Below, piece by piece: positions 3,561 to 61,821 of a DNA stretch of 64,000 nt. The stretch lies in assembly GCA_963575745.1 (NCBI GenBank), contig CAUYUJ010000325.1, forward strand, positions 310,001-374,000, given 5' to 3'. The first letter of the stretch is position 1. Each line of letters begins with the position of its first letter. The notes beneath the pieces were generated by a model that was not told the DNA's origin, searched no databases, and saw only the letters and a program-made list of their open reading frames with translations. This DNA is from Prorocentrum cordatum (lineage: Eukaryota). The translations under genes were made by a program, and so were the position numbers.

Positions 3561-5843
3561 CCTTCCCCCGACCAACCGCTTTGGAGGGAAGGCTACGTGC
3601 TCTTCAGTCCCCACCAGGCCCTCAAGGAGGAATTCACCTTCAACAAGACGGTCCGCCGACCCTACTCCCTAGCCATTACCAACATGTACAGGGATCGTGT
3701 CACGGTCAGGACCGTCTGCGAGTCGATCGCCGAGCGCATCCACACTACCCGCACCCGCTGGCGAGATGTGGTACTGTACTGGGACGCCGAGGGTGGTCCT
3801 GGGCCTCAAGCCCTCGACTACGACATGCGACTCTGCGACGCCATGGTGAGCCGTGCCACGACCGAAGCCGAGCTAAACCACGACCGCAGCAACCGTGGTA
3901 GTTTCTGCCTCTATGGACCAGCGCACCAGCGAGCCGTCAACATCACGGCGATCTCAGAGCCGCAGAACATCGACTACATGGAGCATGTGCGGCGATACTC
4001 ACCCGTAGGGGGGACCTACCCTGACCACGCCTTCGAGCACGTCTATCGGGGCTGGCAGCGGCCCGACGTGCCCACCATCCTCCCCGACACCCGTCCCCTC
4101 TCGAGAGCCGACTGGCAGCGTCACCAACAGCACCAGCAGCGCATCCAGCAGCGGGACCAACGTGACGCAGGACAGCACGGCACGCCACGCTACCGCTCCC
4201 CCGCGCGAGTCCCGACAGGCGGTAACACGGCCTACGACGGGGTTGCCGCCTACTACCGTGGCCCCATAGGCGCCAGGCCCGCGGCTGCTGGAGCAGCCGC
4301 CTCCAGCTACGGCCACGCCCCCCACGCCAGGGTACACCCAGCGGTCATCGGCTACCCGCGTGCACCCGTGCAGGCCCTAAGGGCCACCTCGCCAGTGCCA
4401 GGGTCCACGCGCGCCTGGGGCCTTTACTCAGGCCGACATGATGGCACCTCCAGCAACCAGCCCGCAGTGATAACCCCTGCGGCTTCAGCCCAGGGGGCTG
4501 CAACAAACCGTGGCAGGGCTGGGCGCCCCGAAGGATGGCGTGATGCGAACGTGCGCGCTTGGCAACCTCGCCAGCACACGCCCCCGCCAAACGTAGCTGC
4601 AGCACTGCGCCCTGCCCAGGCAAAACCTGCCCCACCTGAGCGGGAGAGGCAGCCGCTTACCCCGCTCGTCCTCACGCACATCCAGGCGCATCACAGCGCC
4701 TCCCCGCGGCACAGCGAGGGAAGCGCCCACCACGTCAGCCCCCGCCCCGACGCGGTCGACCCCGACCAGGCCACAGCCACGGCGGAAGGCGGCACAAGCG
4801 CCTCTCGCCAGCCCAGCCCATCACCCTGCGCGGCGCCGATCCGATCCCCGAGCAGGGCGGATTCCGAGCGCGCTAATGCCCAGGCGACCTCGCCACGCGA
4901 CCGCCACACGGGCGGGCGCGTCCCGCGCAGCAGGACCTGCAGCCGCCACAGTTCACGCAAGGCCCCAGGGAGCTCCACGAGCTCGCCGCCTCGCGAGACT
5001 CAGGCCGATGGCCGAGCCCCCGAAGTGGTGCCACGCTTCGGAGCCAGCGTCATCGATCCTGGCCAGGTCGACCTCGAGCCGACGCCGTCCACGGACCACG
5101 AGCCGCCGCTGCCCACCCGCGTGATCGTCCCCATCGACGAGGCGCCAACCTTCGACCCGTTCAAGAACAAGTACCGTGTCAAGAACCTTGTGGCGGGTTT
5201 CGGCGGGGGCTCACCGCTCTCACCTCAGAGTCGGGGCGGAGCCCCCGCCACCTCGGCTGCTACCGCGGCAGCGGCGGCCCCGCGGGGAATCAGCCCTGTC
5301 CGCAACGTGGGCCTCACGGCAGCGGGCATGGACGAGGCCCAGCGCCAGGCCTCCGACCGTGCTGCTGGAGCTGTTCCACCAGATGCTGCTCATCAAGATA
5401 CTGACGGGGCGGGCGCGCCACCGCAGGAGGGACCAGCGGTGTCGCGTGCGCAGTACATGCGCGTGCGTTGTGCCGCCGCCGCGCCTGGCCGCCGCCGCTG
5501 GTTCGCTTTTGTTTTTGTGTTCGGCAGGACGGATCGAGGAGTCGCCTCCCTCTCCCTCTGCTGCCGTATCACCTCTCCTCCCCTCGTCCCCTACGGTACT
5601 GGAGTGAGGAGGAATTTTCGTGACATTTTTACTGACATTTATGAACCCCCCCTGGCGCAGTGCCGACCGTGTCCCGCCTATATTTCTGGCCTGACGGCGG
5701 CTTCAGCCCCGGTCAAGCTAATCCATAGGAACGCCATGAGCTCCTACTGTGGCCAAGCCTCCTACCTGGGCGAGGGTCAAGCTGACCTTCACCGTGCGGG
5801 GCGTGCAGACCCCAGTTCCACCGATGGAGACGGGCCAGGTCGC

Positions 5844-6665
5844 TCCATACACCTCGTCAGCCTTAACATCACCAGTCTCTCTGCGAATTGGCCAACCATC
5901 ACCGCCCTTGGTGTCGACCACAACGCCGCAGTCATAGCACTGCAGGAGACCCGACATGCCAAGCCGACTAGACAAGCCATCGCTACCAGCGCCGCCAATC
6001 CACTCCACGGAGGATACCACGCCAGTCTTGGACCTGACCTAGATCTGGCGCGAGCCCAGCGCAGAGCTGCCCACGGCGGCACAGACCACACCGTTGTGGG
6101 CAGCACTGGCGCCTCGGGAGGGGTCGCCATCCTCTCTAAGGATGCCATTGTCGACTCCACTGTCGACGACAATGCGCCCTGTATCGCCGCCCTCAAGGCC
6201 AAGAAAAGATGGCACGAGGTCTTTCTCCCGCTCTGCACTCAACACCGCCGCAGGCGGCGACGAAACAACCACGGGCCCGCGGGGATCTACATAGCGAGCC
6301 TCTACGGGATTGCTGGAGGAGACAGCACAGCTCTTTTTCGGCTCGCTGACTGCGCCGCCGCTAGGGTCGGCTCAGCCCCCTACTTCATCTGCATGGACGC
6401 CAATACGAACATCGACGACAATCCACACCTTCTGCACATGTTGCAGCACGGATGGTTCAACGTTGCTGAGGGCACACCAGACCACACCATGCACACTTAC
6501 GGCAATATCCCTGACTGGGACCGCGTCACCAAGTGCCCCCGCACTTCGCGCATCGATTATATCATTGCCAACCAAGCGGCGCGATCCCTTGTCACCGACT
6601 TCTGCTACCTTCGCGCTTGCCTGCGAAGTCTCACGTTGGCCTGCAGGTCACGCTTGACCTCAGTC
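5844..6665 (+). CDS. Apurinic/apyrimidinic-type (EEP) endonuclease domain of the LINE, frameshifted near 6615
   Basis: SIHLVSLNITSL, VIALQETRH, GGVAILSK, IASLYG, ICMDAN, SRIDYIIAN, then KSHVGLQV in the next frame (ORF 6533-9226). Confidence 0.9.
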
Positions 6666-7768
6666 GCCTCGACCATACGGCCCGACGTCTTCTTGCCCCC
6701 ACGCCCTACCCGCCCGACGATGGAGCTCATGAGGGTCACGAGCTGCAGGCACTAGGGACCCTCATCGCTGGGCGATATCAGGACCGCATGGAGCAGGCCG
6801 ACACACGAGACGACGTGGAGCGCATGTTCGCCCTGGCTAACGAGGCCAGTCATGAGTACCATCTCACCCGTCTGCGCGACCTGCCACCTCCACCGCCCGA
6901 CCACCCAAAAAAGAAGCCCCCCACCATGCACGGGCTCACGCCCACGTTCGAAGATCGACCAGTTGCCCCCCGCGCCTTCCCCACCTACGGAGCTTCCACG
7001 ATACACATGAACCGACTGCGCAAGCTCCATCGGCAACTCTGCGAGCTCCGTTTCATCGGACAGCACCATCATTTGGATTGCCGTGCTATCCCGCCGTACC
7101 TCGCGCAGCGCATCGACTGCACGTGGGCCGCGGCCCGCCTCTTATGCCACAAGCTGCGCCCCACGGTTCTCCTAGACTTCCCCGAGGCCTGGTCCCCCGA
7201 CGAGCCAGTGCCGCACGGAGAGCACCTTGACGTTTTGATCCAACACCTCGACTTGGAGCTGGCGCGACGTGCGAACCGTGCCAAAGCTGAACGCATCAAG
7301 ATATGGGCTGAGGGCGTCCGCGAGCCAAGCGGGCGAAAGGCGGCCATATACGCACGGGCTGCTGACAGCTCGCCCACGGCGTATCTCCGCACGCCTACCA
7401 CTCCTGACGATACGCAACTCCACTGCGACACCAACGCCTTTAAACCTGACGAAGCTTGCACGGACGACAGCGACGCTGACACCGAAGCTGGCGGCTTCAG
7501 CCCCAGCGACGGTAGTTCGCCCGACACGGACAGCGACGAAGACCACACTCGTGAACCACCACCTGCGCAAGTCCCCGACATCCTCCCTGCCAACGCCATT
7601 GTTGCTAACACCAAGGACATGCTGAAGCTCATGGTCGACACCTGGGAGCCCATCTTGGGCAGGTACCGTGCACGTGCGGGACATGACGCCGAAGCCATGC
7701 CGACGTGGGCCGACTTCTACGACGAGTACCGACAGGAGCTGCCTACGCCATCACCAGCTACCCCTTTC

Positions 7769-8700
7769 CACCTTACCGACGACCAACTCATCCACTTCAT
7801 TCGCACCCGTTCACCGCGCCGCGCGGGGGGACTGGACGGCTGGACTACTAAGGAGGCTAAGGAGCTACCCGACGACATTCTTCGCCTCTTCGCCAGCGTC
7901 CTACGCGCTATGCAACGCACTGGCACCATCCCAGAACCCCTCCTCCACGTGCCAAACCCGTGCCTCCGAAAAGGCCGAGGCGAACTCCCAACGGACCAAC
8001 GACTTCTCTCGGTGCTTTCCGTTTGGATGTATGCGTGGGAAGCGCCAGCTTACCGCAGCCTCACGGACTGGCGGAAAGGATGGACCCACGCCACGAGTTT
8101 TGGCGCTGTTCCCAAAGCTACCATTGGGGACGTCAGCACTTCTCTTGCCCTGCGCATCGAACACGCCAGGGCCTTACTCCTTCCCTTAGCTGGAGCTGCC
8201 CTGGACCGACAGAAGTGTTTCGACTACCTCATCACGGACATATGCCTTAACCTTGCGCTTCACGCGGGGTGTCCCCAAGACATCGTTACTGTCCGCAGAA
8301 ACTTCTACAGTCGCCACAAACGCTACATCCGCATGAACGGTGCGTACTCTAAGGAACTGGCCAGGACAAACGGTCACCTCCAGGGAAGCTCTTGGTCCCT
8401 GGACGACATTAAGCTGCTCATGTGTGTTGGACCAAGAGACAGCATCGATACGTTCCGCGATCACTCAGCACTACCTTTGTTGACGACAGCAACTCCACTA
8501 CCCACACCGCGCCCGAGTTGCAGAAATCTCTTGATGAAACCGCCAAGTTTGATCGATTTTCTGGTCAACGCATTCATCCTGGAAAAGTGGCGGGGTGGGC
8601 GCTCACTGACGAGCTTCACACCGCCGTTACCCAGCTCACTTTGGCGGAACGGCCCTTACGCGTGGTCGACTCCTTTAAGCTCGTCGGGAGTTACATCAAC
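7769..8700 (+). CDS. Reverse transcriptase domain of the LINE, frameshifted near 8425
   Basis: RAGGLDGW, LRKG...DQRLLSV, ALDRQKCFD and GHLQGSSWS in ORF 6533-9226. Catalytic FVDD at 8476 and FKLVG in ORF 8422-11157. Confidence 0.92.
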
Positions 8701-11157
8701 GCCGAGGCAGCGCCGGCTCCAGCCGCGCTTAACCTCACGGCCACCGCTGACGCCCGTGTTCGCAGGGCGACTAGTCGCCTGCCGCGCATTGGCAAGCTCC
8801 CATCACCGATGCTTATTAAGGCGCGGCACGCCCGCTCCCTTGCTGCCAGCGTCTGTACCACGGGCACCGACATTCAAGCCCCATCAGGCCCCGTCAAAAC
8901 TGCCTACAACCATGCCCTTAAGGCGGCTATCCGCCCCAAGGGAAACAGGTGGGTCGAGTTTTGGACTCTCATGGCCGTGTGCGTCCCAGGACACGCCCTG
9001 GAGATTGACGCCATTATGCAGCGTGAAGTCTTCCTGTGTCTGCGGCGACAGGTCAACCGCGACGCTACTCTCTGCGGTCTCGTCAGGGATCTCCAACACC
9101 ATGTCCAGACCCTTTTCGGGGGAGGACCTGTTGGACGACTTGTCCAGACGCTTCAGCAGCTCCGTTGGACCTGGCCCACATTTGGCATCATGTACGACGA
9201 CTGGGGCTGTCAGATCAGTTGGCTGAACCTTCCCCAAAACGCCTTCCTTCACATGCTGCGAGCCTCACAACGCAGAGCCTTTCTGAGAAAAATCAAGCCA
9301 CGGCGTCATGACCTTGGACACCTGGCTTCTGTCAGACAGGGCCTCGACCTTTTCGCCAGCACGTGGCTCGCCCGAACGAAAGGAGCAGCCAAATGCAACG
9401 CATGGCAGCTGGCGCTCCTCCTTAACTACCTGTCGGGCGGGGACCACACCCAACAGCGACGATCCCGATCAAACACGTCCGCTGACCCCAGCCCCATCTG
9501 CCGATACTGCGACGAGGAAGAGGAAACTCAGGAGCACACTGTTCGCGACTGCAAGTGCTGGGCCCGAGAAAGAGTCCCTCTTACCACCCTCATCAGTGAC
9601 GAGCAGTGGGCCCGTCTTCCACCGCACACAAGACACTGCGGGCTCTTCGATGAAGACCCAGCCCTCCTCGACCTGCAGGCCGACCTCGCGAGGGACCCGC
9701 TACCTCAGCCCATACCGCGGCCCCCACCTGAGGGAGATCCTGCGGCTTCAGCCCAGGACTCCTACACCACCTACCTTGACCATGACACTGGTTGGACATG
9801 GGTCTACGCTGCCACGGACGGTGCATGCACCAACCAAGCCATCCCATTGCTTGCAAGAGCGGGCTACGGCGTCTACTACGGCATCGACCACCGCATGAAC
9901 TACAGTGCACGCGTTCACGGCATCACGCAGAACGCACAGCTTGCGGAGACCCTCGCCATTGTCCACCTCACGGCATGTGCCGAACGGCCCGTACACGTCT
10001 TCGTGGACAACCAGGCGGTGGTTGACGGTCTCCAAAGGATCATCGACGGACACTCACCACCGCAGGGCACGCACGTGGAGCTCTGGGAAAAGGTCCACCG
10101 ATGTGTCATGGCCAAGCCAAACATGTTCCGCGTCGAGAAAGTCGCTAGCCACCAGGGCGACATGGGCATCGACCTCGGGCTCATCGGGCCCATCGCGGAG
10201 GAGTTCAATCGTCAGGCTGACGCCCTCGCCACAGCGGCGGCACGTACTCATAACCTTCCAGACGACATTGTCGAAGCTGCCAAATCACGACATCGCCAAG
10301 CGACCGTGCTTCATGGAGTCGCTGTCGCCATCTACGAGCGTAGACACCGTACACTCCCCCTCCCACACCGCAGGGCTGGGTTCACAGCTGCGGAACTAAA
10401 CAAAATGGAACCAAATCCCCTGCTGTCTGACCAGGCACCACCCGCGGCTGGACCAGACATCCCACAAAACCCCGACGAGCTCTGGGCCGAGGCCCAACGG
10501 GTGTTATTCGACGAACAGGAGGACGACCCGTTCGGCTTTGGTGGGGGCCTGGACTTCCTGGGCGACGGGCCAGCCAGCGCCAACCCTGCCCCGTCGGGTA
10601 CCCGCACGGCGCCCCCGACTCCGCCATTGAGAGCGGCAGCGCACCCACATGACAACGCCGTTCTTTTTCAAGACGCTGACGAGCAGGACGATGACCTGTT
10701 CAGCTTCGGTGGGGGATCGGACGCTTTGGACGACGGACCAGCCAGCGAAAACCCCGCCCCGTCGGGAAACCTCTCGACCCCTACTGCGACTCCGTCCCCA
10801 AGAGCGATAACGCCCACATACGATGATATCGGCCACCGCCAAGACGCCGACCATGACCTGGGTGACCCCCGAGGACTGAGTGGCATTGAGGACGCACCGC
10901 CGATACCACACGCTGCCGACCATGCCGCCCTACCGAGACGCCAACCTTCTACGCGACCGACCTCAGCGGCCTTGCACGGCATCACGACTGGTCCCACCGC
11001 GCAAACCACTCCGCCTCCCCACCGCCGGCAGCCCGCGGGGGCGGCTTCAGCCCCCCCGCAGGGTACTAAACCAGACAGGCCCTCGTGCCCCATCCACGCT
11101 TCCATCGTTGCTGAGCGAGAGGAAGCGGCTCCCCGACCTCTCGGGGCGTGGCCCTAG
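8422..11157 (+). CDS. LINE C-terminal region: CCHC zinc finger (~9493-9570), RNase H (~9800-10245) and acidic repetitive tail
   Basis: CRYCDEEEETQEHTVRDC; ATDGAC, AQLAETLA, VFVDNQAVVDG, KVASH and NRQADALA give the D-E-D-H-D RNase H pattern. Confidence 0.9.
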   Translation: MCWTKRQHRYVPRSLSTTFVDDSNSTTHTAPELQKSLDETAKFDRFSGQRIHPGKVAGWALTDELHTAVTQLTLAERPLRVVDSFKLVGSYINAEAAPAPAALNLTATADARVRRATSRLPRIGKLPSPMLIKARHARSLAASVCTTGTDIQAPSGPVKTAYNHALKAAIRPKGNRWVEFWTLMAVCVPGHALEIDAIMQREVFLCLRRQVNRDATLCGLVRDLQHHVQTLFGGGPVGRLVQTLQQLRWTWPTFGIMYDDWGCQISWLNLPQNAFLHMLRASQRRAFLRKIKPRRHDLGHLASVRQGLDLFASTWLARTKGAAKCNAWQLALLLNYLSGGDHTQQRRSRSNTSADPSPICRYCDEEEETQEHTVRDCKCWARERVPLTTLISDEQWARLPPHTRHCGLFDEDPALLDLQADLARDPLPQPIPRPPPEGDPAASAQDSYTTYLDHDTGWTWVYAATDGACTNQAIPLLARAGYGVYYGIDHRMNYSARVHGITQNAQLAETLAIVHLTACAERPVHVFVDNQAVVDGLQRIIDGHSPPQGTHVELWEKVHRCVMAKPNMFRVEKVASHQGDMGIDLGLIGPIAEEFNRQADALATAAARTHNLPDDIVEAAKSRHRQATVLHGVAVAIYERRHRTLPLPHRRAGFTAAELNKMEPNPLLSDQAPPAAGPDIPQNPDELWAEAQRVLFDEQEDDPFGFGGGLDFLGDGPASANPAPSGTRTAPPTPPLRAAAHPHDNAVLFQDADEQDDDLFSFGGGSDALDDGPASENPAPSGNLSTPTATPSPRAITPTYDDIGHRQDADHDLGDPRGLSGIEDAPPIPHAADHAALPRRQPSTRPTSAALHGITTGPTAQTTPPPHRRQPAGAASAPPQGTKPDRPSCPIHASIVAEREEAAPRPLGAWP

Positions 11158-33351: not shown

Positions 33352-34952
33352 CCCTTGTCGTCACCGTTGCCGTCGCCGTCGCCGTCGCCGTCGTCGACGT
33401 CATCGTAAGCATCAGCGCCGTCGACGTCGTCGCCGTCGGCGTCGCCGTCGTCATCGCCGCCGCCGCCGTCGTCGGCGCCGTCGTCGCACGCGTCGTCGTC
33501 GTCGTCGTCGACGTCGTCGTTTTCTGCGACATTGTTGTCGCCGTCGTCGTCGTAGTCGGCGTCGCCACCCCCAACGTCGCAGTTCCCATCGTCGGTGTCA
33601 TCGTGGCCGTTGTTGAAATCGCCGTCGTCGTCGTCGTCGTCGTCGTCGTCCTCGCCGTCGTCGATTCCGTCGCCGTTGTCGTTGCCGCCGTCGCCGTCGC
33701 CGTCTCAGTTGTCGCCATCGTCGACTTTGTCTTGGCCGCCACCGTCGTCGCCGTTGCCGTCGTCGTCGCCGCCGTTGTCGCCGTCGTCGTCGTCACCGTC
33801 GTCACCGCCTTTACCGCCGCCGCCGTCGCCGTCGCCACCGTGGTCGTCGTTGTCGCCGTCGTCGTCGCCGCCGTCGTCGTCGCCGTCGCACTCGCCGTCG
33901 TCGGCGTCGCCGTCGTCGTCGCCGTCATCACGGTCGCCGGCGCCGTTGTCGTCGTCGCCGTCGTCGCCGTTGTCGTCGCCGTCGCCGTCGCCGTCGTCGC
34001 CAGCGTCGCCGTAGCTGTCGTCGTCGTCGTCGCCGTCGTCGTCGGCGTCGCCGTTGTCGTCGCCGTCGTCGTCGCCGTGGTCGCAGTCGACGCCGTCGCC
34101 GTCGTCGCTGCCGCCGCCGCCGTTGCCGTCGTCGCCGTCGCCGTCGACGTCGTCGTCGTCGACGCCGTCGTCGCTTTCGTCGCCGCCGCCGCTGTCACCG
34201 TCGCCGTCAGCGCCGTTATTGTCGCCGTCGTCCACGTCGTCGTCCTCGTCGCCACATCCGTCGCCGTCGTTGCCGCAGCCATCGTCGTCGCCATCGGCGC
34301 CATCGTCGTCACCGTCGTCGTCGTAGCCGTCGTCGTCATCGCCTTTGCTGTCTCCGTCGCCGTCGCCGTCGCCATCGATACCATCGTCGTCGCCATCGTC
34401 GCCGTCGTCGCCGTCGCCGCCGCCGCCGTCGTCGTCGCCTCCGTCGCGAGCCTGGCCGCCGTCGACGCCGTCGCCGTCGAAATCGTCGTCGTCGCCGTGA
34501 CCGTCGTCGTCGTCGTCGGTGTCGCCACCGTCGTCTACGCCGTCGACGTCGTCGTCGTTGCCGCCGTCGTCGTCGTGGTCGACGTCGCCACCGCCGTCAT
34601 CATCGCCGTCGCCGTCGTCGCCGTCGCCGTCGTCGCCGTCGCCGTCGTCGCCGTCGCCGTCGTCGTCGCGGCGTCAGCGCCGTCGCCGTCGTCGGCGTCG
34701 TCGTCGTCGTCATCGTCGCCGTCGTCGTCGTCGTCGTCGGCGTCGCCGTCGTCGCCGTCGCAATCGCCGTCGTCGTCGTCGTGGCCATCGTTGTCGTCGC
34801 CGTCGCAGTCGTCGTCGTCACCGTCGTCGTCGTCGTCGTCGTTGCCGTCGCCGTCGTCGTCGTCGGCGTCGCCGTCGTCGCCGTTGCAGTCGCCGTCGTC
34901 GTCGTCCTGGCAATCGTTGTCGTCGCCGTCGTTGTCGTCGCCGACGTCGTCG

Positions 34953-34986
<34 letters not shown>

Positions 34987-35851
34987 ATCGTCGCCGTCGC
35001 CGTCGTCGCCGTCGTCGTCGACGTCGTCGTCGCCGTCGTCGTCGTCGTCGCCGTCGTCGTGGTTGTCGTCACCGCCGTCGTCGGCGTCGGCGTCCACGCC
35101 GCCGCCACTGTCGCCCTCGACGACGTCATCGTTTGCGTCGTTGTCGTCGTCGCCGCAGCCGTGGCCGTCGCGGTCGCGGTCGCCGTCGTCGTCACCGTCG
35201 GCGTCGCCGTCGTCGTCGTCGTCGTCGTCATCGGTGGCGCCGTTGTCGCCGTCGTCGTCGCCGTCGTCGTCGTCGTCTTCGCCGCATCCGCCGCGGGCCG
35301 ACGCCGTCGCCGCCGTCGCAATACTTGCCGCCGTCGACGTCGTCTTCACCGTCGAAGTCGTCGTCAAAGGAGTCGTCGTCGTCGCAACCGTCGTCGTAGT
35401 CGTCGACGTCGTCGTCGTCGCCGTCGTTTCCGCCGCCATCGTTGTCGGCGCCACCGCCGTGGCCGTCGGGGTCGCCGTCGTCGTCGCCGACGTCGTCGCC
35501 GTCGTCGCTGTCGCCGTCGCCGTCTTCGCAATGCCGTCGCCGACGCCGCCGTCGCCCTCGACGCCGGCGCCGGCGTCGTCGCCGTCGCAGGCGTCGCTGT
35601 TGTCGACGTCTCCGCTGCCATCACCATCGCCGTCGCCGTCGTCGCCGTCGTCGTCGCCGGCGTCGCCGTCGTCGCCGCCGCTGTCGCAATCGGTGTCGCC
35701 ATCGTCGTCGTCATCGCCACGCCGCCGCCGTCGCCGTCGTCGCCGTCGTCAGCGTCTGCGTCGCCGTCGTCGTCGCCGTGGTCGACGACGTTGTCGGCGG
35801 CGCCGCCACCGCCGCCGCCGTCGTCATCGTCGCCATCGTCGTCGTCGCCAT

Positions 35852-35888
<37 letters not shown>

Positions 35889-37935
35889 AAAGCCGTTGCC
35901 GTCGTCGTCGTCGTCGCCGTCGTCGTCGCCGTCGCTGTCGCCATCGTCGTCGTTGTCGGCACCGCAGCCGCAGTTGCCACCGCCGTCGCTGTCGCCGTCG
36001 TCGCCATCGTCGTCGTCGTCGTTGTCGGCGTCGAAGTCGTCGCCGCCGTCGTCGCCGCCGTCGTCGCTGCCGCCTTTGCCAGCATCGTCGCCGTCGCCGT
36101 CGTCGTCGCCACCGACGGCAACGCCGCCGCCGCCGTCAGCGTCGTTGGCGTCGTGCCCGTGGTCGTTGAAGTCGTCGGCGTCGGCGTCGCCGTCGCTGTC
36201 GACGTCGTCGCCGTGGTCGTCGTCGCCGTCGTCGTCGCCGTCGTCGCCGTCGTCGTCGCCGTCGCCGTCGCCGTTGTCGGTGTCGCCGCCGCCGTCGTTT
36301 CTGTCGCAGTCACAGTCGTCGAAGCCGCCGCCGCCGTCACCGTCGCCGTCGTCACCGCCGCCGTCGTCGGCGTCGTTGTCAGCGCTGCTGGCGTCGAGGA
36401 CGTCGTCGTCATCGGTGTCGCTGGCGCCGTCGATGCCGTCGTCGTCGTCGGCGTCGTGGGCGTCGTCGTCGTCGCCGTCGTCACCGTCGTCGTCGTCGTC
36501 GTCGCCACCGTCGTCGTCGCAGTCGACGCAGTCGCCGTCACCAACGTCGTTGGCGTCGCCGCCACCGCCGTCGCCCTCGCCGACGTCGTCGTCGTCACCG
36601 TCGTCGTCGGCGGCGCCGTCGTCATCGCCGTCGTCGTCGCCGTCGTCGCCGTCGACGCCGGCCTCGTCGTCGCAGCCGCCGTCGTCGTCGCCGTCGCCGT
36701 CGCCGTCGTCGGCGTCGCCGCCGCCGCCGTCGTTTCTGCCGCCGTCGCCGTCGTCGAAGCCGCCGTCGCCGTCACCGTCGCCGTCGTCACCGCCGCCGTC
36801 GTCGGCGTCGCCGTCAACGTCGCCGTCAGCGTCGATGGCGTTGAAGACGTCGTCGTCATCGGTGTCGCTGGCGCCGTCGATGCCGTCATCGTCGTCGGCG
36901 TCGTGGGCGTCGTCGTCGTCGCTGTCGTCACCGTCGTCGTCGTCGTCGTCGTCGCCACCGTCGTCGTCGCAGTCGTCGCAGTCGCCGTCGCCAACGTCGT
37001 TGGCGTCGCCGCCACCGCCGTCGCCCTCGCCGACGACGTCGTCGTCGCCGTCGTCGTCGTCGGCGTCGCCGTCGTCATCGCCGTCGTCGTCGCCGTCGTC
37101 GCCGTCGACGCCGGCCTCGTCGTCGCAGCCGCCGTCGTCGTCGCCGTCGCCGCCGCCGTCGTCGGCGTCGCCGCCGCCGCCGTCGTTTCTGCCGCCGTCG
37201 CCGTCGTCGAAGCCGCCGCCGCCGTCACCGTCGCCGTCGTCACCGCCGCCGTCGTCGTCGGCGTCGCCGTCAACGTCGCCGTCAGCATCGATGGCGTTGA
37301 AGACGTCGTCGTCATCGGCGCCACCGCCGCCGTCGATGCCGTCATCGTCGTCGTCGCCGCCGTCGTCGTCGTCGTCGTCGCCGCCGTCATCGTCGTCGCC
37401 ATTGCCGCCACCGCCGCCGCACCATCGCAGTCGTCGTCGACGCCGTCGTGGTCGCCGTCGTCCCCCCTGAGGTCGCCGTCGCCGTCGGCGTCGCCATCGT
37501 TGTTGCTGCAATCGTCGTCGGCGTCGCCGTCGACGTCGTTGGCGTCAAAGACGTCGTCGTCATCGTCGTCCCCGCCGCCGTCATCGGCGTCGACGTCCCC
37601 GTCGTCGCCGTCGTCGTCGTCGTCGCCGTGGTCATCCTCGCCATCGCCGCCACCGCCGCCACCGCCGCAGTCGCCGTCGCTTTCGTCGCCGTCGTGGTCG
37701 CAAACGTCGCCGTCGAAGTCGCCGCCGTGGACGGCCTCGCCGCCGTTGTTGCCGCCGTCGTCGTCGACGTCGCCGTCGGCGTCGCCGTCAAGGTCGCCGG
37801 CGTCGTCGGCATCGCCGGCGTAGCCGTTGTCGCCGTCGCCGTTGCCATCGTTGTGGCCACCGCCGCCGCCGTCAACGTCGTCGCCGCCGCCATCGGCGTC
37901 CCCGCCGCCGTCGTCGCCGTCGTCGTCGTCGGCGC

Positions 37936-43197: not shown

Positions 43198-46100
43198 GGC
43201 GCACACTCCAAGTCCCCGAGTCCGCACATGACGCGGGGGGACGGCGCGCGTGAAACTACCCTGCACCCAGCCCCTTGCCAAGCTCGTCTGGCCAGGTCTT
43301 CAGACCTGGGGGGAGGCGGCAATCCATGAGTTTGGACAGCACCTTCTTGCCCCAGTCTGTTGGGCGGCGGCAGGTGCCTTGCAACCCTGCGCTTACCTTC
43401 GCACTGCTGTAGGCCCCACACTTGCGACACCACCAGGGTTCACGAGTACAAGACACATCGCGGCTCTGATGGATCTGGTGCGGCCGACCTGGGCAATGCG
43501 AGGCAAGCCACTCCAGCGTCCCACACTATTTGGTGGGGCGCCCGCGGCAAACAATACACAATTTATACCCCCCTTCTCGATCACGCTGTGTGTGGTCTCC
43601 TGCAGTGTTTGCACAACGTTCGATTGACGCTGGGCCCTGGACACTCGACTGCGGGCCACACGATCAGCTCTAGAGGTGGCCGAGTATAGGGAGGGGGTCT
43701 GGATAGCCATTTGCAGAACGACTTCTGTCAGGCACCTCTGCACGCGGACAGCTTTATTGTCTATGTCGGTTGCCTGCTGGATGATATGCTGTGGGAGCCT
43801 GGCCATGCGCGCCCCTTCAGTGGCACACTCATCCGCGGCCTCGTTGGCGGTATGATCTTCCCGGGTAGTGTGGACCCCCACGTCCCCTTCTTCGAGGGGG
43901 GACTTTACCTTTTTAAATTGGCACGGCCCTGGATGGCCTTCATAGGCCTCCCAGAAATCGAGCCACGCAGCCGAATTAGCCTCGTGGTTCCATTGGGGTC
44001 CATGACGAATCCCATCAATCACGTTCTGGCAGTCGAGCACAAAATGACATTCACCAATAGTGCGTTGCAAAGCTACGGTGATACCGACCAGCTCCGCTAA
44101 GGGAACCGTCTGGATCCGTACTGGGAGGGTGCCGTACGCTCTGCCTACCACGCGGCCTCCCTGGACAATGGCGCAACCCCATCCGCAACGATGGAGGCGC
44201 TTATCGTCAGTACAATCCCCCCCACTCCCGTCCGACCCGACCCGATCATCAGCACCTAACGGCACGCGCCCTCTTGCATCGAATGCTCCTTCAAAATTGG
44301 CTTGGCCCTCCGGTCACGACTCGACCAAGTCGTGGACCCATAAAACAGGAGCCAAACCGCGGAGCCAAAAACATGGGAACTCGGCATGTTTCTCACGGGC
44401 TTCCAGGGCAAGGGAGACGTCCTCAGGAGAGAGAGGGGGGTTGCAGGCGCAGCTCCACATCTTGTGAAAAAAATCCTCCTCCTCCTCCTGCCCACACTGC
44501 CGGCAACGCCTCTCCTCAGACGCGACGGGCGCCTGGGGAACGCGCGTCGTGGCGGGCCATAGGGCGCCTGTGGCCACCATCTCGAGGACGGCTGCCAAAC
44601 TGGCCTCCCATTTAGACCTCAACCTCGCGAGGTGGCGGCGGAGAGGAATGAGGTCATACCCGAATTCTAAACCTGCCCCACAGGAATGCTGAGACGCATG
44701 CTGCTCCCACACCTTCTGCTCCAGCGCCCCCCTCCACCTCCGCCAAAACGCACTGCCTCCATCCCTGGGGGCTGCCCCTAGCGGGCTCAGGGTAGAAGGG
44801 GGTGCGCTGGTCGGTGGAAAGCTCCGGGGCAAAAAAATACACCTGTTCTGCATCGTCGAGCCACTTGTACGGGGTCACAGGATCCCAGCCAAGTTGGAGT
44901 AGCATCGCCATCAAGGCCTCCGTGGGGCCCTTCACTTTACACCATGGAGACTTAGCATTCGCTATGGCGCGCCGGCAGCATGCTCAGGCACTGGAAAGAC
45001 ACGGTGTGGTCCAGCCTACTTGCGGCGCCACTTCCAACCAAGACTTGACCAAGTCGAATCGGCCAAACACTAATGGATCATCTAGCTGGGTAAACCCTAG
45101 ACGGAGCGCTACCGTGGCGCATCCTCCATGACGTCGCACGCCGCTCATGGAGGCGATCTGGCTTCTGATATTCAGAAGGGTGGCGGGGGCAGCTCCCTGC
45201 CCTGCCAGGCCCCACGAGGTCATGGGGTGTATAACCAGTGCGGGCTAAGCGTTTCGCCGTGCGGTCGGCTTTGATTAAACCCTTTATGCGACGAGCACGA
45301 ACAGAGGCTTTCTTCAGCCGGCCCTGGACCATGACGGCGCTACGCCTCTTACTCGAAAAACTCGATTCCTAAGTCGCGAAAGGCAGTGACACATTTCCGG
45401 TTGATGCCACAACCGGCCTGGACATTGCCAGCAATCTGCTGAACGAGCTTGGGTTTGGCAGCTAACAAAACTGTTCTACCTGAAATCCTCAGTTCTTGTC
45501 CTTGCGTGCGGCGGAATAGGTGGATCAGAGTTTCGGAGTACTGTCTGACTACATCCCGCGCGTTCCCCAATACCTGCAAAGCTGTGTCATCCACCCAGGT
45601 CTGAACCTCCAGTGGACGAAGACCTCGGTGCGGTTCCTGCATCAGCCCTCGCGGAAGATAGCGGGCATGTGTCCCGCGAAACATATCGTGCAGATACGCT
45701 CGACTCCACGCTACACTCTGAACGCAGCCTGCCAATATCGAAGTCGATATCTGGATAAAATCGGAAGCTGCACCTTGCACTGTAATGACACGGTCATCCA
45801 TATGCATTGACATCCCCAATTACATAATAGGTAATGGGTAGCCTGAGGCACTGGCACGGCCGTAATAGAAGATGAAGAAAGGCTTTAACGTGTCGTAGAA
45901 CTTCTCGCAGTCTATCATGGCCTGTGCCCAGTCGAAGCCTATGTACCGACCAATTTCCACTTTGAGGGCCCGCAGGAGCCCGGCTCGCAACGCATTGAAA
46001 TTACGCACAGCACAATCCCAAAAGCCCGCCTTCGCAGCCTCCCAGGATACCACGGGCTCTTTCCGAAGCCTCCCCCACACGCGATAGAGGGTCTGCGTGC

Positions 46101-55336: not shown

Positions 55337-55706
55337 GTGAACGTGGTTTGGGTCGCGGGTGGGTCGCGGACTCCCCACCTCCACCTATAGGAATGCAAAA
55401 GCAGCCCGCCGCAGGCTCCAAAAAAATTGGTTTGTGCACTGAACGTGGTTTGGGTCGCGGGTGGGCCGCGGGTTCTCCACCAGAAACGAATGCAAAAAAT
55501 GCCCGCCGCAGGCGCCGAAAAATGTGGTTTGTACCCTGAACGTGGTCGCGGGTGGGCCGCGGGCTCTCCACCTGAAACGAATGTAAAACATGCCCGCCGC
55601 AGGCGCCGAAAAATATGGTTTGTACCCTGAACGTGGTTTGGGTCGCGGGTTGGTCGCGAGTTGGTCACGGGGTGGGTCGAGGGCTCTCCACTTGGAAGGA
55701 ATGCAG

Positions 55707-55750
<44 letters not shown>

Positions 55751-56072
55751 CAGGCGCCGAAAATGGGTGTTTTGTACCTTGATACCTTGAACGTGGTTTG
55801 GGTCGAAGGTGGGTCGCGGGTGGGTCGCGGGGTGGGCCGCGGGTGGGTCGCGGCTGGGTCGCGGGTGGGTCGCGGCTGGGTCGCGGGTGGGTCGCGGGGT
55901 GGGCCGCGGGCGGGTCGCAGGGTGGGTCGCAGGGTGGGTCGCGGGGTGGGTCGCGGCTGGGTCGCGGGGTGGGTCGTGGGGTGGGTCGCGGGTGGGTCGC
56001 GGGTGGGTCGCGGGTGGGTCGCGGGTTGGGTCGCGGGTTGGGTCGCGGGTGGGTCGCGGGGCGGGTTGCGGG
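55337..56072. repeat. ~100-bp repeats (TGAACGTGGTTTGGGTCGCGGG...) followed by a (GGGTCGCGGGT)n array
   Basis: Seen directly. Confidence 0.9.
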
Positions 56073-56087
56073 TGGGACGACGACAAC

Positions 56088-56120
<33 letters not shown>

Positions 56121-56121
56121 C

Positions 56122-56250
56122 GAGAAGTCGCGTCGAGGCTGGGCCCGCGCTAACGCAGGGCACAACCGTCGACTGGCGCAGGCCCAGGCCAGGCGGTGGG
56201 GTGAGCGCGAGTCGGCGTCGCGGAGCCGAGCAACCTCGCCGACGCCTCCC
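56122..56250. repeat. Terminal direct repeat B2 (129 bp)
   Basis: Base-for-base identical to 56552-56680. Confidence 0.95.
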
Positions 56251-56551
56251 CCAAGCCTGGCGCTGGGTCAGCCCAGCCTCGACACAACTAGCAGCCACTG
56301 CGACGCCAGTGCGCTCGCGCAGCAGGGTCGGGCGGGTGGGGAAAAACGCATCCCGCCAGCGGGACGGCCACGCGTGAGACAAATCCCATTCACCTGCGAC
56401 GAGAACGCGCTCGCGGGCGCGCAGGGTGGGGATCCGCCTCAGCCGTGAATAGCCGTCCCGCAGCATTAGAGACAAGCAAGAAGATAGCCAATAGGGGCCA
56501 CGACGCTCGCGCGACTTCTCCCCGCGCTCAAATGCTGCCCAGAGCGCCCAT

Positions 56552-56680
56552 GAGAAGTCGCGTCGAGGCTGGGCCCGCGCTAACGCAGGGCACAACCGTC
56601 GACTGGCGCAGGCCCAGGCCAGGCGGTGGGGTGAGCGCGAGTCGGCGTCGCGGAGCCGAGCAACCTCGCCGACGCCTCCC
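56552..56680. repeat. Internal direct repeat B1 (129 bp)
   Basis: Base-for-base identical to 56122-56250. Confidence 0.95.
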
Positions 56681-56748
56681 GATGCATGCTCGGCGGAACG
56701 ACGCCCAAGCGCGCTCTAAGCAGACCGCAGATGCCTGGTCTGCTTGAC

Positions 56749-58810
56749 TCACGGCCTGGGCGGCCCCTGCACCGCTTCCGCGGCGATCGGCGCGTCCTGC
56801 GCGCCACGCGCCGCCGCGGAGCCCCGACCCCGATGCCTGCAGGGCGGCGCCTCGTCGGAATCGGAGTGCGCGATCTCGGCTTCTGCCGCCAGCACCATGG
56901 CTCGCGTCTTTGCGGCCGGGTACCTGTGCGCCGCCAAGCGCCGCGCCCTCGCGACCCAGGCAGCGCGGCCGTGCCCCCTGTCGGAATGGAGTGCCCGAGC
57001 GCGGCCACAGATCTCCAACCCCCTTCGAAGAACAGCGCTGCTGGCCCCCCGGTGCGGAGTGCCTGTGTGCGAGAGACACGAACTGCGCGCGGGCCCTGGG
57101 TAGGCAGGGGACGGCAAGGGGGGCCCATGCCTGGTCGGCCCGGCCGCGCCTGAAGCAATGCGTCCCCCACTCCAATGCCCTATGGAGCCCGAGGTGGGCA
57201 GCGGCGAGCTTGACGCAAGCCAGCCCGTCCACGTAAGAGACGCCCGGCAGGAGCTGCTCGCCGGGCCGGAGCGAATGCCGAATGATGCAGACCGCACACA
57301 ATCGTTTGCCCTGGAGCTGGCATACGCATACCCTCCAGACCTCGCGATGCGGGGAGCCCGGGGCGCGCCCCGCCGCGCGCGCGCGCTCGGCCCGCCGGGT
57401 CGGGAGCCACTCTCCCCTTCCGCTGGCGGAATTGCACCTGCACCTGGTGCTTTCCTTCGTCTACGTGGAGCGAGACGGCACTATGCCCAGGCGCATTCAG
57501 CCCCACTACTTCGGAGCCGAAGCGCAAGCAGAACTGCCAGCATATGACGAAAGCGTCGGCCATATCGCCGCGTCCGATCTGCCAAACGCCAGGCCCGCGG
57601 GCCGGCACGCACGGCAGGCCGCTTAGTTAGAAGAGCGCGCGGCCGCGCCTCGCGCAGCCAGTCCGACATCGCGCGCACGTTTTCGGCCGTGGAGCGCGCG
57701 CGAAATCTTTGCGCACCAGGCGGTTCCGCCTGCCGCCGATATCATGGGCTCGCGGCCGACGCGCGCGGCGGCCGTACCTTTCGGGCACCGAATACCAGGG
57801 CCCGCGTGTCCGCCAAAGACCCTGTGTCTGCGCGGAGCAGATGCAGGACTGAGCGAATGCCCTGCAAATAGTTCGACAGGGTCCCCGGGCGGCGACAGAG
57901 CGCCACCATCATGTCCCGCGCGATGGCGCACGGCGGCCAGGGCGGGACGCCTGCCGCATCGCACGCCTGGCCGTACAACTCCACCGCCGAGGCATACGGG
58001 TATGCCGAGAGCTTCCACGCGTGGAATTCTCGCCACAGCGCGGCCATCTGGATGCGGCGCATGTACTCCAGTCCTGCTCCTGACACCCGCAATTCCTCGG
58101 CGCGCCGACGAGGTGTTCCTGGCACCCGCCGCACGCCGATGTCCTGCCTCGCGCGCACCTCCCGCGGAATGCCGCCTTCGCTTATGAATATCGCGGGCGG
58201 AGCCTGGAGTTTCGTCAGCTGGCGGATTGCCTCTGCCAGCATCGGCGGCGCTGGTACCTCCGCGCCGCGCGCGGTGCACGAGGACGGTGGCGCCGCGCGG
58301 TGGTGCCTGCCGCGCCTGCCTTGCCGCTGAGAGCAACGCGAGGGCTTCTTGAGGCGTCAAACCCCCGCCGGGCCGGCGTTTCGCGCGCAAGCCCGGTGCC
58401 GGTGCCGGGCACTTGGCCGCTTTCTCGAGTAACGTTTCCGCCGCCTTCGCGCCCACGGGTCAGCGGGCGGCGGCCGGCCTTGCTTGCTCCGCCGGATGGG
58501 GCGGAGTGGCGCGCGCGCGCTCGACCTGGGAGAGCGATGCCGCTGCATCGTCCTCCCGGGGCCGCTTTGCCTTTTCGTGGGTCAGCTTACGCGCGTGAGT
58601 AATAAGCGTCACGGTGAAGCACTCTGACCACTCCCGGAGGCGCGGGAACACTTCCCTCGCCTCCTTCGCCGTGAATCCGGACAGGTCGGGGGGATACGCC
58701 GCTCCTTCGGCTGCGAGCATGGATGTCAGACACTGCAGAGCTTCCGCGCCTACCGGATGCGAATCATTTTCGGGCGTCCACCGCGACGCGTGTGACAAGC
58801 ACGCAAGCAT
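56749..58810 (-). CDS. Multi-exon tyrosine recombinase
   Basis: TLSNYLQGIRSVL (SAM-like domain), FCLRFGSE (R), RQRKG (K), WGTHCFRRG (HxxR, ~57160) and GGWRS. Catalytic Tyr (TAC 56922-56920) follows once intron 56994-56924 is removed. Start is approximate. Confidence 0.82.
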
Positions 58811-58903
58811 GGCGCCCGCGGGCCCCCTCTCGCGGCGGGCCTGGTCGTCACGCGCTCGCCGCGCAAGCCTTTGCGCCCCCTACAAATTGCCCTGTGCTAC
58901 TTG

Positions 58904-61821
58904 CTATGCACGCCCGCGCGAATGCCAGGGCGCCGCGCGGGGCCATGGCCACGCCACTCGGGTGAAGCCCTCGCGGTGCATGGCCGCAATCGCGGCCGCC
59001 TTCGTGGCGGGCCGCGTAGGGGCGTCTGCCTCGTTGAGCGCGGATGGCACATACCGCGCGCTCAGGAGGCACCGCGCGGTCGCTGCTGCGAACCAAATAT
59101 CTGCCACGAGCGCGTTATAATCTGCCTGGCGCGAGGCCCCGCGTAGGAGCACCCCGAGCGCGGCCTGGCGCGGTCAGCGGAGCATCGCACGGGCAGCTCG
59201 GCGACCCGCGCCCGGCCGCGCCTTCGAATCGACAAACAACACGATTTCCGCATCGCGCAGCGTCGCGAGCAAATGATGCAAGGCGCAAACGGCCGCGACG
59301 AGTTCCCATGCCGCGACCTTTCGCAACACGGCGGGCTGTCCGCCAGGCTACGCGTGGCCGGGGCGCCCCCGCCTGCGTCTTGCGGTGCTTCGTCCACCGC
59401 TTGATCGACGAAGGCACATCAGCCGCTGCATAGCGCTTACCGCTGGGCCCAATGATGACCCACGCGAGCCTGCGGAGGCGGGGCGGGCCGGGCAATGCGG
59501 GCGCCGTTCCAAACAGGCGCGCGCGTATGTCGCCTGCCGCCGCCCGTCGCGTCGGAATAGACGAGGTAGCGTGGCCGCTCCGGGGTCACCCGCAGGGGCA
59601 CCGCTCGTTCCGGCGCGCTCCGGAGGAAGCGCAGCCACCATTCCAATGCCCCGCGGAGCCGCGACTTCAACCTCCATCCCCGCTGCTGCGCGTGCCAGAA
59701 CAGCGGGGCGAGGTATACCCGGGCACCTGCCGTCGCTCTCGCGCGCGCGCGTCGCTCGCGCGCGGGAGCTTGGGCGTGCCTCTGCCGAACACCGCAGAGG
59801 AGCCCCATCCGAGTCTGCCGGCAAGTTTTGATGCCGCCGCCGGCGACATTCTCCCTGCCTCCAGCACCCACTCGATCTCTTGGATCCATTTGTGGCGCTT
59901 GTCGCCACCGATCGCGAATACTAACGAGAGCTCATCGCCCGATCCGCGCACTTCCGCGTCGACGCCGAGCACAGTGGCCCTCGGCTCGGCAACAACGCGT
60001 TTGCCGGCGTCCAGGCGCCAGCCCAAAAGGTCTTCGACGACCGCCCTCAGGACCTCTGCGGCATCGCGGGGGCCGCCCGCGCCGGGCCCCCTGTCCGCGT
60101 CGGCCCGGAACAGATCGTCCACGAATCGGCCCGAAGCGAGCGAGAACAGCTTGGCAAGGATGGCCTGCCGCGCTCGCGGGGCGCTCGCCGTGCCGCCGCG
60201 GCGCTCGCGCCTCGCGCCGGGAGCGCCGCCCCAACGCGGTCCCAAGCGCATCCGCTGCCCACGGCGCCGAAGGGGCAGCTCAAGAGTTGCAGACAGTAGC
60301 CCTCGCGGGCTCCCTTGGCCCACACCGAATGGGCCAACGGGAGGTCGGCGCCTCGCACGGGCAACGTTTTGTAAGCACCGATGAAATCTTCTTTGCTCAG
60401 CACCGGCGTGCCGGCCGCGGCCGCGACCCGCGCCAGCTCGACCAGAGCATCGAGAGAATCCACCCTGCGCGCGGTCGCGGCGACACGGGAGAGCGGACAG
60501 CGCGCGCGAGGGGCGGGGGGGAGGGGGAAGGGCCCGCCTGCACCTCTCGGCTGCGGCGGCGCAGTCATTAACGCCCGTGGCAGTGAAATCGTCGATCGCG
60601 CGCACCTGGACGCGTTGGCTCCCGGCGCGGCGCCCAGGGGAGGGGACGGTGCATGCCGCGGCGAATGCGCCATTCCTTGCGTATCCATTCTTCCAACTTC
60701 CAGCGCCATCCCTCGTCTACAGGGAATCGCGGGTTTAACACCGCCCCGCGTGGCAGGTCGGACAACCGGACCCACGCTGCCTGGCCCGCGGCCACCTGCA
60801 CGCTCGCGGACGTCGCAGCATGGGCGACTGTCCCCGCTGGCTTGCGCGGCGCGCGCCTCTTCGTATGCTTTATCATGCAAAATCTGGGTGACTTCCGCGT
60901 CGGCCCCCAGATCCCGAGACACGCGCTCGAGGGTGGCGGCGTTCAAAGTGTCCGCTCGGCTGCGCAACTCGGATGGGCATTCGGCTCCCTTGGGGGTCAC
61001 GGGCGCGTTCATGCCCGAGCGCGGCAGGACCCCCACTAGCGGGAAGCCCCGCTCCAAGTCACGCGTCAAATTCTCGTCGGACGCCTCAAGCACGGAGCCG
61101 CGCCCCGCTGTCGCGCGCGCGCGCGCTGCGTCGCTGGTCACCCCAGCAGCTTGCATCATTTCGGCCAAAAGCAACAAGTTCTTGTCAGGCCCAAGGACGG
61201 AGCGCACATGCCATGGTAACTTCGCATAGCGTGCCTCGCCCGACCGCGCTCTCCGCCGGCGCTTCGCGGTAGCGGCGCGCCGGGCGGCGCCTTCCATTCT
61301 GAAGCCGTCACGCGTTTGCGCTCTCGCCAAAATTGCAACGCCGCCTCGCGCCTCTCTTGCAAGAGCGCGTCGCTCGTCTGGCTCGCCGCCACCGCCGCAT
61401 CGCGCTCAGGTCCCGCAAGCGGCGCTATCTCGCGGACTCGCGGCAAGTGTGCCGCCCAGGCGGCGTGGCAAAGAGGGCTCATGCCCGCCCTCTTGTCTTC
61501 GTCGTCGAGCAACGCATCCACGGCGGCTTTGATCTGCGCGCGCGCGCTTCGCGGCTCCGCCCCCGTAGAGTGGCGGGCAAGGGCCTCTTCAAATGCGCAG
61601 CCGGCATCGTGGATTTGCTGGGGGCAAAGGTCGCCGCCCCCGCCTTCGGCGCCGTCGTCGGAATCAACATCCGCGTCCTGCGCTGCGCTCGCCGCGGGCG
61701 GGGCGGTCTCGCGCGCGGCGCACTGGCGGCGCCTCCTGCCCCTCGGGCGACGGCCCGCGCCACACTGCGCCCTCACCGCTGTCGGCAGGGTGCAATGGGG
61801 AGGCCCCGTCGTCTGCATCAC
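58904..61821 (-). CDS. Multi-exon pol: DIRS-type reverse transcriptase plus RNase H
   Basis: DLERGFPLVG, PRFPV, K|VRAIDDF...GVN, KEDFIGAYKTLPV, CPFGAVGS...WDRV, FVDDLF (~60120), VLGV, KLAGRLGW, LEWW, VYSDA (59553), WELVA, LFVDS and NALVADIW lie in different frames that join on removing short introns. Ends are approximate. Confidence 0.88.

Follow-up and report, generated by a model that had tools for sequence, protein, structure and literature searches.

In the stretch of Prorocentrum cordatum DNA analysed here (contig CAUYUJ010000325.1, positions 310,001 to 374,000; 64,000 nucleotides (nt), hereafter the window), a tyrosine-recombinase (YR) gene occupies positions 56749–58810 of the minus strand, the strand that carries all parts of the element described below. 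Its stop codon (56751–56749) was taken from the list of open reading frames (ORFs), and its start is placed near the ATG at 58810, the N-terminus having been aligned with that of the homologue P0015. Upstream lie exons resembling those of a reverse transcriptase (RT) and an RNase H, and downstream lie two copies of a direct repeat. An earlier note on this DNA had proposed that two introns interrupt the recombinase gene and that splicing supplies the catalytic tyrosine. Both introns stood up to analysis, but it had been missed that the gene contains at least eight of them and forms part of an element bearing RT and RNase H. We assign a probability of about 0.85 to the reading that both segments are spliceosomal GY-AG introns, among at least eight short ones (48–71 nt) in the recombinase gene of a Ngaro/PAT-like mobile element. 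The element is accordingly rated as an intron-dense Ngaro/PAT-like element, in which the active site of the recombinase would be assembled by splicing.

The two segments lie close to the 3' end of the gene. On the minus strand, the downstream segment (56994–56924, 71 nt) starts with GCACTC, ends with CACAG and is flanked by ...CTCGG and GTACCC, while the upstream segment (57130–57063, 68 nt) starts with GCATGG, likewise ends with CACAG and stands between ...GACCAG and GCACTC. Three reading frames meet at these sites: the first reads W-G-T-H-C-F-R-R-G-R-A-D-Q up to 57131, the second A-L-R-T-G-G-P-A-A-L-F-F-E-G-G-W-R-S-V-A-A-L-G from 57062 to 56995, and the third Y-P-A-A-K-T-R... from 56922 onwards. 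When left unspliced, the tryptophan frame runs from G-G-W-R-S-V-A-A-L-G into H-S-I-P... and contains no tyrosine over its remaining ~100 codons, as had been claimed. The TAC at 56922–56920 is the sole Tyr codon in the three forward frames of 57062–56752, and is the first full codon downstream of the 56924 acceptor. The proposal that a 71-nt GC-AG intron at 56994–56924 supplies this tyrosine was borne out from the sequence, with its coordinates unchanged, as was the need for a second intron at 57130–57063, since the H-C-F-R-R-G frame joins the G-G-W-R-S frame only after the 68-nt segment is taken out. The GC content of the window is 62%, rising to about 70% at 56–64 kb; because every reading frame is open in DNA of this composition, the open frames found there carry no weight in the argument.

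Word-based homologue searches returned close read-through relatives only, with none among longer proteins, and three predicted proteins found in this way were read-through calls on unspliced DNA. In one of them, P0003 (66% identical), the L-R-F-G-S-E and H-x-x-R boxes share a frame with the N-terminal domain, and aligning it to the window revealed three interruptions upstream of the two already described. From this protein and four related DNA loci (L001–L004), recovered by a scan of metagenome contigs, we modelled six exons (A–F) and five introns. Exon A (57778–58118) encodes an N-terminal, core-binding-like domain and is followed by intron A/B (57730–57777; 48 nt, GT..AG, with an in-frame TGA inside), exon B (57649–57729, placed by homologue comparison) and intron B/C (57579–57648; 70 nt, GC..AG). 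Exon C (57396–57578) carries L-R-F-G-S-E, with the first catalytic Arg, and R-Q-R-K-G, with a candidate Lys, both assigned by motif only; intron C/D (57341–57395; 55 nt, GC..AG) separates it from exon D (57131–57340), which includes W-G-T-H-C-F-R-R-G, with the His codon at 57160–57158 and the Arg codon at 57151–57149. Intron D/E (57063–57130, GC..AG) is in phase 0 and leads to the 68-nt exon E (56995–57062; ...G-G-W-R-S-V-A-A-L-G, Trp codon at 57017–57015). Finally, intron E/F (56924–56994, GC..AG) is in phase 2 and splits a Gly codon as GG|G, so that Tyr is the first full codon of the last exon, F (56752–56923), which ends in an acidic S-D-S-D tail.

Alignment with P0015 added two introns upstream of exon A. 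Intron iii (58119–58175; 57 nt, GC..AG, 59 nt in L002) is one whose removal restores collinearity with P0015, and intron ii (58258–58306; 49 nt, GC..AG) was likewise placed from the P0015 alignment. The 5' part of the gene (58307–58810) contains an in-frame stop at 58462–58460, near which L002 differs by indels at 58523 (6 nt) and 58481 (2 nt); together, the stop and the adjoining indels suggest one further, ninth intron in the YR gene. Intron boundaries were placed partly by seeking GY-AG, and collinearity with uninterrupted homologues fixes them independently to within one residue. All eight window introns have GY..AG ends (seven GC and one GT), as do about 1.1% of random segments of the same lengths from the region, with a G at exon position -1 in every case and a G after the acceptor in seven of the eight. 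An introner-like origin was considered and rejected: the eight introns are mutually dissimilar, and have only GC-rich 13–32-mers in common with the rest of the window.

Two of the related loci are close to the window, with about 88% nucleotide identity over 61735–56512 in the case of L002 (5130 nt) and over 57942–56122 in the case of L003. L001 represents a separate lineage, whose spliced protein is 61.5% identical to that of the window, and L004 a third lineage, ending within exon E. When the window was compared with L002, all six modelled exons aligned with 0 gap columns at 90.7–95.3% identity, whereas the introns were 61.8–85.7% identical, with gaps in four of the five (1, 16, 0, 10 and 1 columns). 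Seven indels separate the two sequences across 58810–56752, five of them in modelled introns, two near 58.5 kb and none in modelled exons. Intron B/C carries a 16-nt indel; intron D/E is 61.8% identical with a 10-nt indel, and intron E/F is 77.5% identical with a 1-nt indel. Exon F, at 95.3% identity and with 0 gap columns, differs at codon positions 1/2/3 in 2/1/5 places, and exon E in 2/1/3. Over the spliced coding sequence as a whole these counts are 18/11/52, with a third-position excess in each exon alone, against 17/16/19 by position in the introns, and across 335 codons there are 51 synonymous and 22 non-synonymous codon changes. This pattern of substitution shows purifying selection acting on the spliced frame.

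The more distant lineages show the same architecture. L001 has introns at the same five places, of 62 (A/B), 52 (B/C), 66 (C/D), 54 (D/E) and 58 (E/F) nt, four of them GT-AG (including D/E and E/F) and one GC-AG, with GTGAGC as the C/D donor. Exon lengths in the window and L001 are equal in five of six comparisons (279/279, 81/84, 183/183, 210/210, 68/68 and 128/128), whereas the intron sequences are 48–55% identical, a level also reached by shuffled sequence (mean 51%, maximum 61%). L004 has a GT donor at the place of intron D/E, and G and then TAC come directly after the last acceptor in each of the window, L001, L002 and L003. We judge both segments very probably to be real introns, as the earlier note held, because of the gap and codon pattern against L002, the introns at the same places in L001, and the alignment in one piece with the uninterrupted homologues described below. 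As a separate observation on L004, positions 1366–1685 of this locus contain extra interruptions where the window has the single exon D, the peptides I-W-R-V-C-V-C-S-L-Q-G, R-R-L-C-G-V-C... and ...W-G-T-H-C-F lying in three different frames.

An exhaustive HMMER search with P0003 yielded 101 representatives at E ≤ 0.001, 25 of which contain an uninterrupted H-x-x-R-[RK]-G ... G-G-W-[RK] ... Y. The tyrosine lies eight residues after the tryptophan (W+8) in 23 of these 25 homologues and at W+9 in two; after splicing, it likewise lies at W+8 in the window, L001, L002 and L003. It had been considered that homologues might put the catalytic Tyr elsewhere, and they do not. The spliced window protein, assembled by script from the coordinates, aligned as a single high-scoring segment pair (HSP) with each of P0013 (44.5% over 301 columns, 7 gaps), P0010 (41.8%, 5 gaps) and P0011 (40.8%, 2 gaps). 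A multiple alignment was free of gaps at both the D/E and the E/F junction and set the window Tyr beneath the family Tyr, downstream of which the window and its homologues had a common tail, A-K-x-R ... A-A-E ... S-D-S. In a 24-sequence alignment (A3), the His, Arg, Arg, Gly, Gly-Gly-Trp and Tyr positions were invariant.

The order of motifs in the spliced protein (L-R-F-G-S-E, R-Q-R-K-G, H-C-F-R-R-G, G-G-W-R-S, Tyr) is that of a tyrosine recombinase. An AlphaFold model of P0014, which is 42.7% identical to the spliced window protein, reached a predicted local distance difference test (pLDDT) score of 82.7 and a predicted template-modelling (pTM) score of 0.62. Foldseek ranked Cre first for this model (E 3.6e-4, template-modelling (TM) score 0.56), followed by XerH, protelomerase and the Tn1549 integrase, and VIA-align superimposed it on Tre/Cre with a Z of 14.1 over 268 residues at an rmsd of 4.9 Å, and on lambda Int, XerH and Flp with Z of 12.8, 11.1 and 9.4, respectively. 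Where the VIA-align rows stop at model residues 373–374, they stop in Cre at 314 and in lambda Int at 333, the box-II Trp/His position. The modelling shows a predicted Cre-like fold for the recombinase family, and the encoded recombinase is presumably active as an enzyme. Like Cre, the family has a two-domain fold (in the P0014 model), the order R...H-x-x-R...W...Y and a Trp at the second-His position. It differs from Cre and other solved recombinases in sequence (12–16% identity), in its long extension at the N-terminus and in its acidic S-D-S-S tail. In addition, unlike Cre, the window gene is eukaryotic and intron-split, and its Tyr lies at W+8 instead of W+9 (the Cre spacing being that of W315 and Y324). 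Tblastn against phages gave zero matches, as did viral contig scans with P0003 and with A3. The only phmmer match in the PDB, obtained with the L001 read-through protein, was a seed storage protein (E 0.24), which was taken as chance.

Elsewhere in the element, the motifs of the RT-like and RNase H-like exons (58904–60611, with a stop at 58906–58904) occur in canonical order: R-x-I-D-D at ~60600, S-K-E-D-F at ~60400, C-P-F-G at ~60290, F-V-D-D at ~60125, Y-S-D-A-T at ~59560, W-E-L at ~59300 and N-E-A-D at ~59030. In this way RT motifs 1–2, A, B and C (F-V-D-D) and the D-E-D-D of RNase H were read from the sequence, upstream of the YR. Compared with L002, the exon running from motif C to the thumb has 17 synonymous and 6 non-synonymous changes, the last RNase H exon 11 and 3, and the motif 1–2 exon 6 and 0; judged by these counts, purifying selection acts on the RT-like and RNase H-like exons. 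In the ESM Atlas, two RT exons lead to RVT_1 clusters (0.89 and 0.93, as language-model leads), and the last RNase H exon gave a weak Pfam match to PF00336 (E 0.046). The RNase H stop (58904) and the start of the YR (about 58810) are fewer than 100 nt apart, too close for a methyltransferase domain to fit between them. Over this boundary, one contig of run X20 (from a divergent relative, the RNA status of the run being guessed) skips 67 nt at 58845–58911, a segment that on the minus strand begins with GT, ends with GA and includes the RT/RNase H stop. L002 differs from the window by two 1-nt indels in this segment, and the skip may mark an intron separating the RNase H gene from the YR gene, or else a deletion there.

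Downstream of the YR gene, the 129-nt repeat B1 (56552–56680) is 100% identical to B2 (56122–56250), the two copies enclosing the 301-nt segment A2 (56251–56551). B2 marks the 3' end of the element: L003 has the element up to 56122, where the alignment stops, and continues into a flank unlike that of the window. Many sequence variants of the element were found within single runs, and, by these sequence comparisons, it is mobile, with copies at different sites. Contigs of DNA run X2 cover the B1-A2 region (56260–56763) to a summed depth of 327–446, as against ~132 elsewhere in the element (about 2.5–3.4x), as would be expected if terminal or solo repeats outnumber full elements. Immediately past the 3' end of the element, the stretch 55338–56121 contains a 91-nt unit in tandem (3.3 copies) and an array of 24 copies of an 11-nt repeat, together with 43 nt of poly(A) and an (ACA)n run.

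Copies of the element differ in the introns they contain. The RT gene of the window has a 73-nt GC..AG intron (60465–60537) that both L002 and the P0004-encoding copy lack exactly. At this point L002 has the very junction predicted from splicing, reading ...A-A-A-E-R-C-R-V-D-S-L-D..., and P0004, 96% identical to the window there, has the same uninterrupted RT peptide. P0005 and P0006 begin inside 60537–60465, which implies that their copies carry the intron, and the five nucleotides GCAGG are common to both of its ends. In the YR gene, the P0003 lineage is without intron B/C; P0074 and P0053 keep the interruption after the H-x-x-R box and have no E/F intron, and P0075 and P0034 have neither. 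The exact deletion of a single intron is the trace that reverse transcription of spliced RNA would be expected to leave, if, as seems probable, the direction of change was loss and not gain.

The catalytic residues of the recombinase are distributed across four exons, with the Arg and candidate Lys in exon C, His-x-x-Arg in D, Trp in E and the nucleophile Tyr in F, and therefore only an mRNA spliced at every such site encodes an active recombinase. The host spliceosome would remove at least eight short GY-AG introns to generate this mRNA; a transcript keeping intron E/F would encode a Tyr-less protein, and one keeping intron D/E would shift frame after H-x-x-R. We infer that these introns are spliced in vivo and that RNA is the intermediate by which the element moves. 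Since introns persist in its copies, new ones are presumably made from an unspliced template, which would require the proteins of the element to act in trans. On a more tentative view, to which we give appreciably less than even odds, this family of YR retroelements has kept a dozen or more coding-region introns over long divergence, forcing a division of labour. Fully spliced mRNA would then yield RT, RNase H and recombinase, which would act in trans on an unspliced (rarely partly spliced) RNA template, and the exact single-intron losses (the RT intron in L002/P0004, B/C and E/F) would be a fossil record of partly spliced templates. In a host that routinely splices GC-AG introns, the element would resemble a host gene to the splicing machinery. 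Of 241 junctions mapped in Emiliania huxleyi, 56% were GC-AG according to a passage in one report (PMC4028052), and an excerpt of another gives 14–17% of junctions in pelagophytes (bioRxiv 10.1101/2024.10.30.620910). By analogy, the dominance of GC donors here (seven of eight) would fit GC-rich marine algae such as these.

A number of observations weigh against an RT- and YR-bearing element with spliced introns. No Pfam RVT match was obtained for the window frames or the RT homologues, the RT assignment being made from motifs and language-model leads; phmmer of the RT frame against the PDB gave zero matches, and an RT structure model built from P0004 (6 sequences) had a pLDDT of 34.7 and was unusable. 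Similarly, PF00589 was unmatched by the window frames, L001, P0003 and 10 uninterrupted homologues at cut-offs from E ≤ 1 to E ≤ 10. Pfam negatives in GC-rich DNA seem weak, however, because the RT of a second element in the window (3036–11154) goes unseen by Pfam at E ≤ 0.001. Against the PDB, the A3 profile gave 16 matches, all to Cre and over the His-x-x-Arg and Trp boxes, at E 0.6–1.3, which is not significant alone; the Cre residues aligned are His289, Arg292 and Trp315. The fold argument is built on the homologue P0014 in place of the spliced window protein, and the Tyr-bearing helix of this model has a pLDDT of 56–64. No A1, which would be a second copy of A2, was found within the 64-kb window, and the 5' end of the element may lie beyond 64000. 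Furthermore, a contig of run X20 runs unbroken from exon F over the acceptor at 56924 and on for 34 nt into intron E/F. With 22 differences in 406 nt this contig comes from a divergent relative, and if the run, whose RNA status is guessed, is indeed RNA, this molecule was unspliced at intron E/F. Contigs of runs X20, X8, X17 and X2, none of which is on record as RNA, contained no splice joint at any YR intron, although contigs cannot show absence; one contig of DNA run X2 spans 56677–58957 with the introns present.

Among the alternatives, the introns might be real and the element might nonetheless spread as DNA, by Crypton-like excision and reinsertion of a circle, or be a domesticated cluster of host genes. 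This would sit well with the conservation of five intron positions between lineages 61% identical in protein, with the removal of a sense-strand intron by DIRS-1 retrotransposition (as a passage of PMC7192593 has it), and with the existence of Cryptons, YR-encoding DNA transposons that often have introns according to part of PMC13465315. It is harder to reconcile with purifying selection on the RT-like and RNase H-like exons (17 versus 6 and 11 versus 3 changes) or with the exact single-intron deletions in some copies, and the differing flank of L003 beyond B2 argues against a fixed host locus; we consider spread as DNA, or domestication, unlikely. It is also conceivable that removal of the introns, of E/F especially, is regulated, such that intron retention toggles the recombinase and the Tyr-less form might still bind DNA. 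The nucleophile does stand by itself where the last exon begins, read-through from exon E meets no stop for ~100 codons, and one contig, from the run whose RNA status is guessed, extends into intron E/F. However, every intron of the YR gene is equally required and nothing singles out the Tyr intron, while P0074, P0053, P0075 and P0034 do without an E/F intron, so the arrangement is not essential to the family. The related suggestion in the earlier note, that splicing gates integration activity, gained no specific support, since every split gene requires splicing and no alternative splice form was seen, and we regard regulated retention as quite improbable.

Two further explanations dispense with introns altogether. 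If the gene were a decayed pseudogene, the apparent introns would be chance GC..AG pairs around frameshifting insertions and the Tyr would be brought into frame by an arbitrary edit. All frames are open in this 70% GC DNA, Pfam detects no domain, and the boundaries were chosen partly by looking for GY-AG, all of which such decay would accommodate. It would leave unexplained why third-position bias and synonymous excess are found in every exon of the spliced frame and in none of the introns, why the same five interruptions recur, with different lengths and unalignable sequence, in a lineage 61% identical in protein, and why the uninterrupted homologues align collinearly with the spliced product in a single HSP; with GY..AG ends in 8/8 introns versus 1.1% of random segments, we think decay very improbable. 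Alternatively, the three frames, which do need joining, could be linked by translational recoding (programmed frameshifting or bypassing), and DIRS-type elements are known to have overlapping ORFs. Recoding would, however, require skips of 48–73 nt at eight places, over stretches that lack codon structure, contain indels not divisible by three and are bounded by GY..AG, some of which are exactly absent from the DNA of related copies, and we find it scarcely credible.

With spliceosomal introns in a Ngaro/PAT-like element thus the favoured reading, the window can be set beside known elements. Ngaro-type elements have the layout A1-[ORFs]-B1A2B2 in the passages of PMC8547959 and PMC13465315 that describe it. 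The window resembles the Ngaro/PAT-like elements (DIRS order) in the succession of RT-like, RNase H-like and YR regions, all on one strand, in its B1-A2-B2 3' end and in having copies with differing flanks. It is unlike them in that its ORFs are split by introns, at least eight in the YR gene and at least one in the RT gene; Ngaro and DIRS as described are treated as intronless, and SymbioDIRS is given as monoexonic in the intron-rich host Symbiodinium in an excerpt of PMC5890265. Cafeteria Ngaro YRs are reported, in part of PMC8547959, to match PF00589, whereas the window YR does not. A parallel is kangaroo-1, a PAT-like YR retrotransposon of Volvox carteri, which has introns in its transcripts according to a citing sentence in PMC1636488; the likeness is that of an algal YR retroelement with introns. 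Apart from that sentence, no intron-split DIRS/Ngaro coding region was described in the portions of text returned by full-text literature searches.

Introns are kept through retrotransposition in Penelope-like elements too, a feature called 'highly unusual among retroelements' in the quoted part of PMC8557442. They belong to another RT clade, with a GIY-YIG endonuclease and no tyrosine recombinase, and the same text describes their introns as few and often located in the 5' untranslated region. Cryptons, as presented in a section of PMC13465315, are alike in being eukaryotic YR-encoding elements whose genes commonly have introns; they are unlike in having no RT, RNase H or split direct repeats, whereas the RT-like exons of the window are co-conserved with the YR over 5.1 kb (L002). 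Retrotransposition normally erases introns, and DIRS-1 assays depend on that, as stated in an extract of PMC7192593. An element of this kind would offer a natural system in which to ask which RNA, spliced or unspliced, is copied, whether proteins act in trans, and how introns are lost or gained in mobile DNA. Intron-blind annotation of transposable elements and genes misses such elements entirely, and the public predicted proteins of the close copies (P0001–P0008) are read-through artefacts.

Elsewhere in the window, long ORFs on the plus strand at 3036–11154 matched the Exo_endo_phos endonuclease (E 9.9e-5, short of the Pfam cut-off) and RNase_H (E 1.5e-7), and look like a retroelement of the long interspersed nuclear element (LINE) type. 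A borderline match to an OPT oligopeptide transporter lies at 33617–36166 on the plus strand (E 7.6e-6, 25.3 bits versus a cut-off of 25.8), in a 32–40 kb block of ~72% GC with a strong AT skew (-0.4 to -0.6). On the minus strand, 43396–44313 gave a weak RNase_H match (E 3e-4) and is possibly a retroelement fragment.

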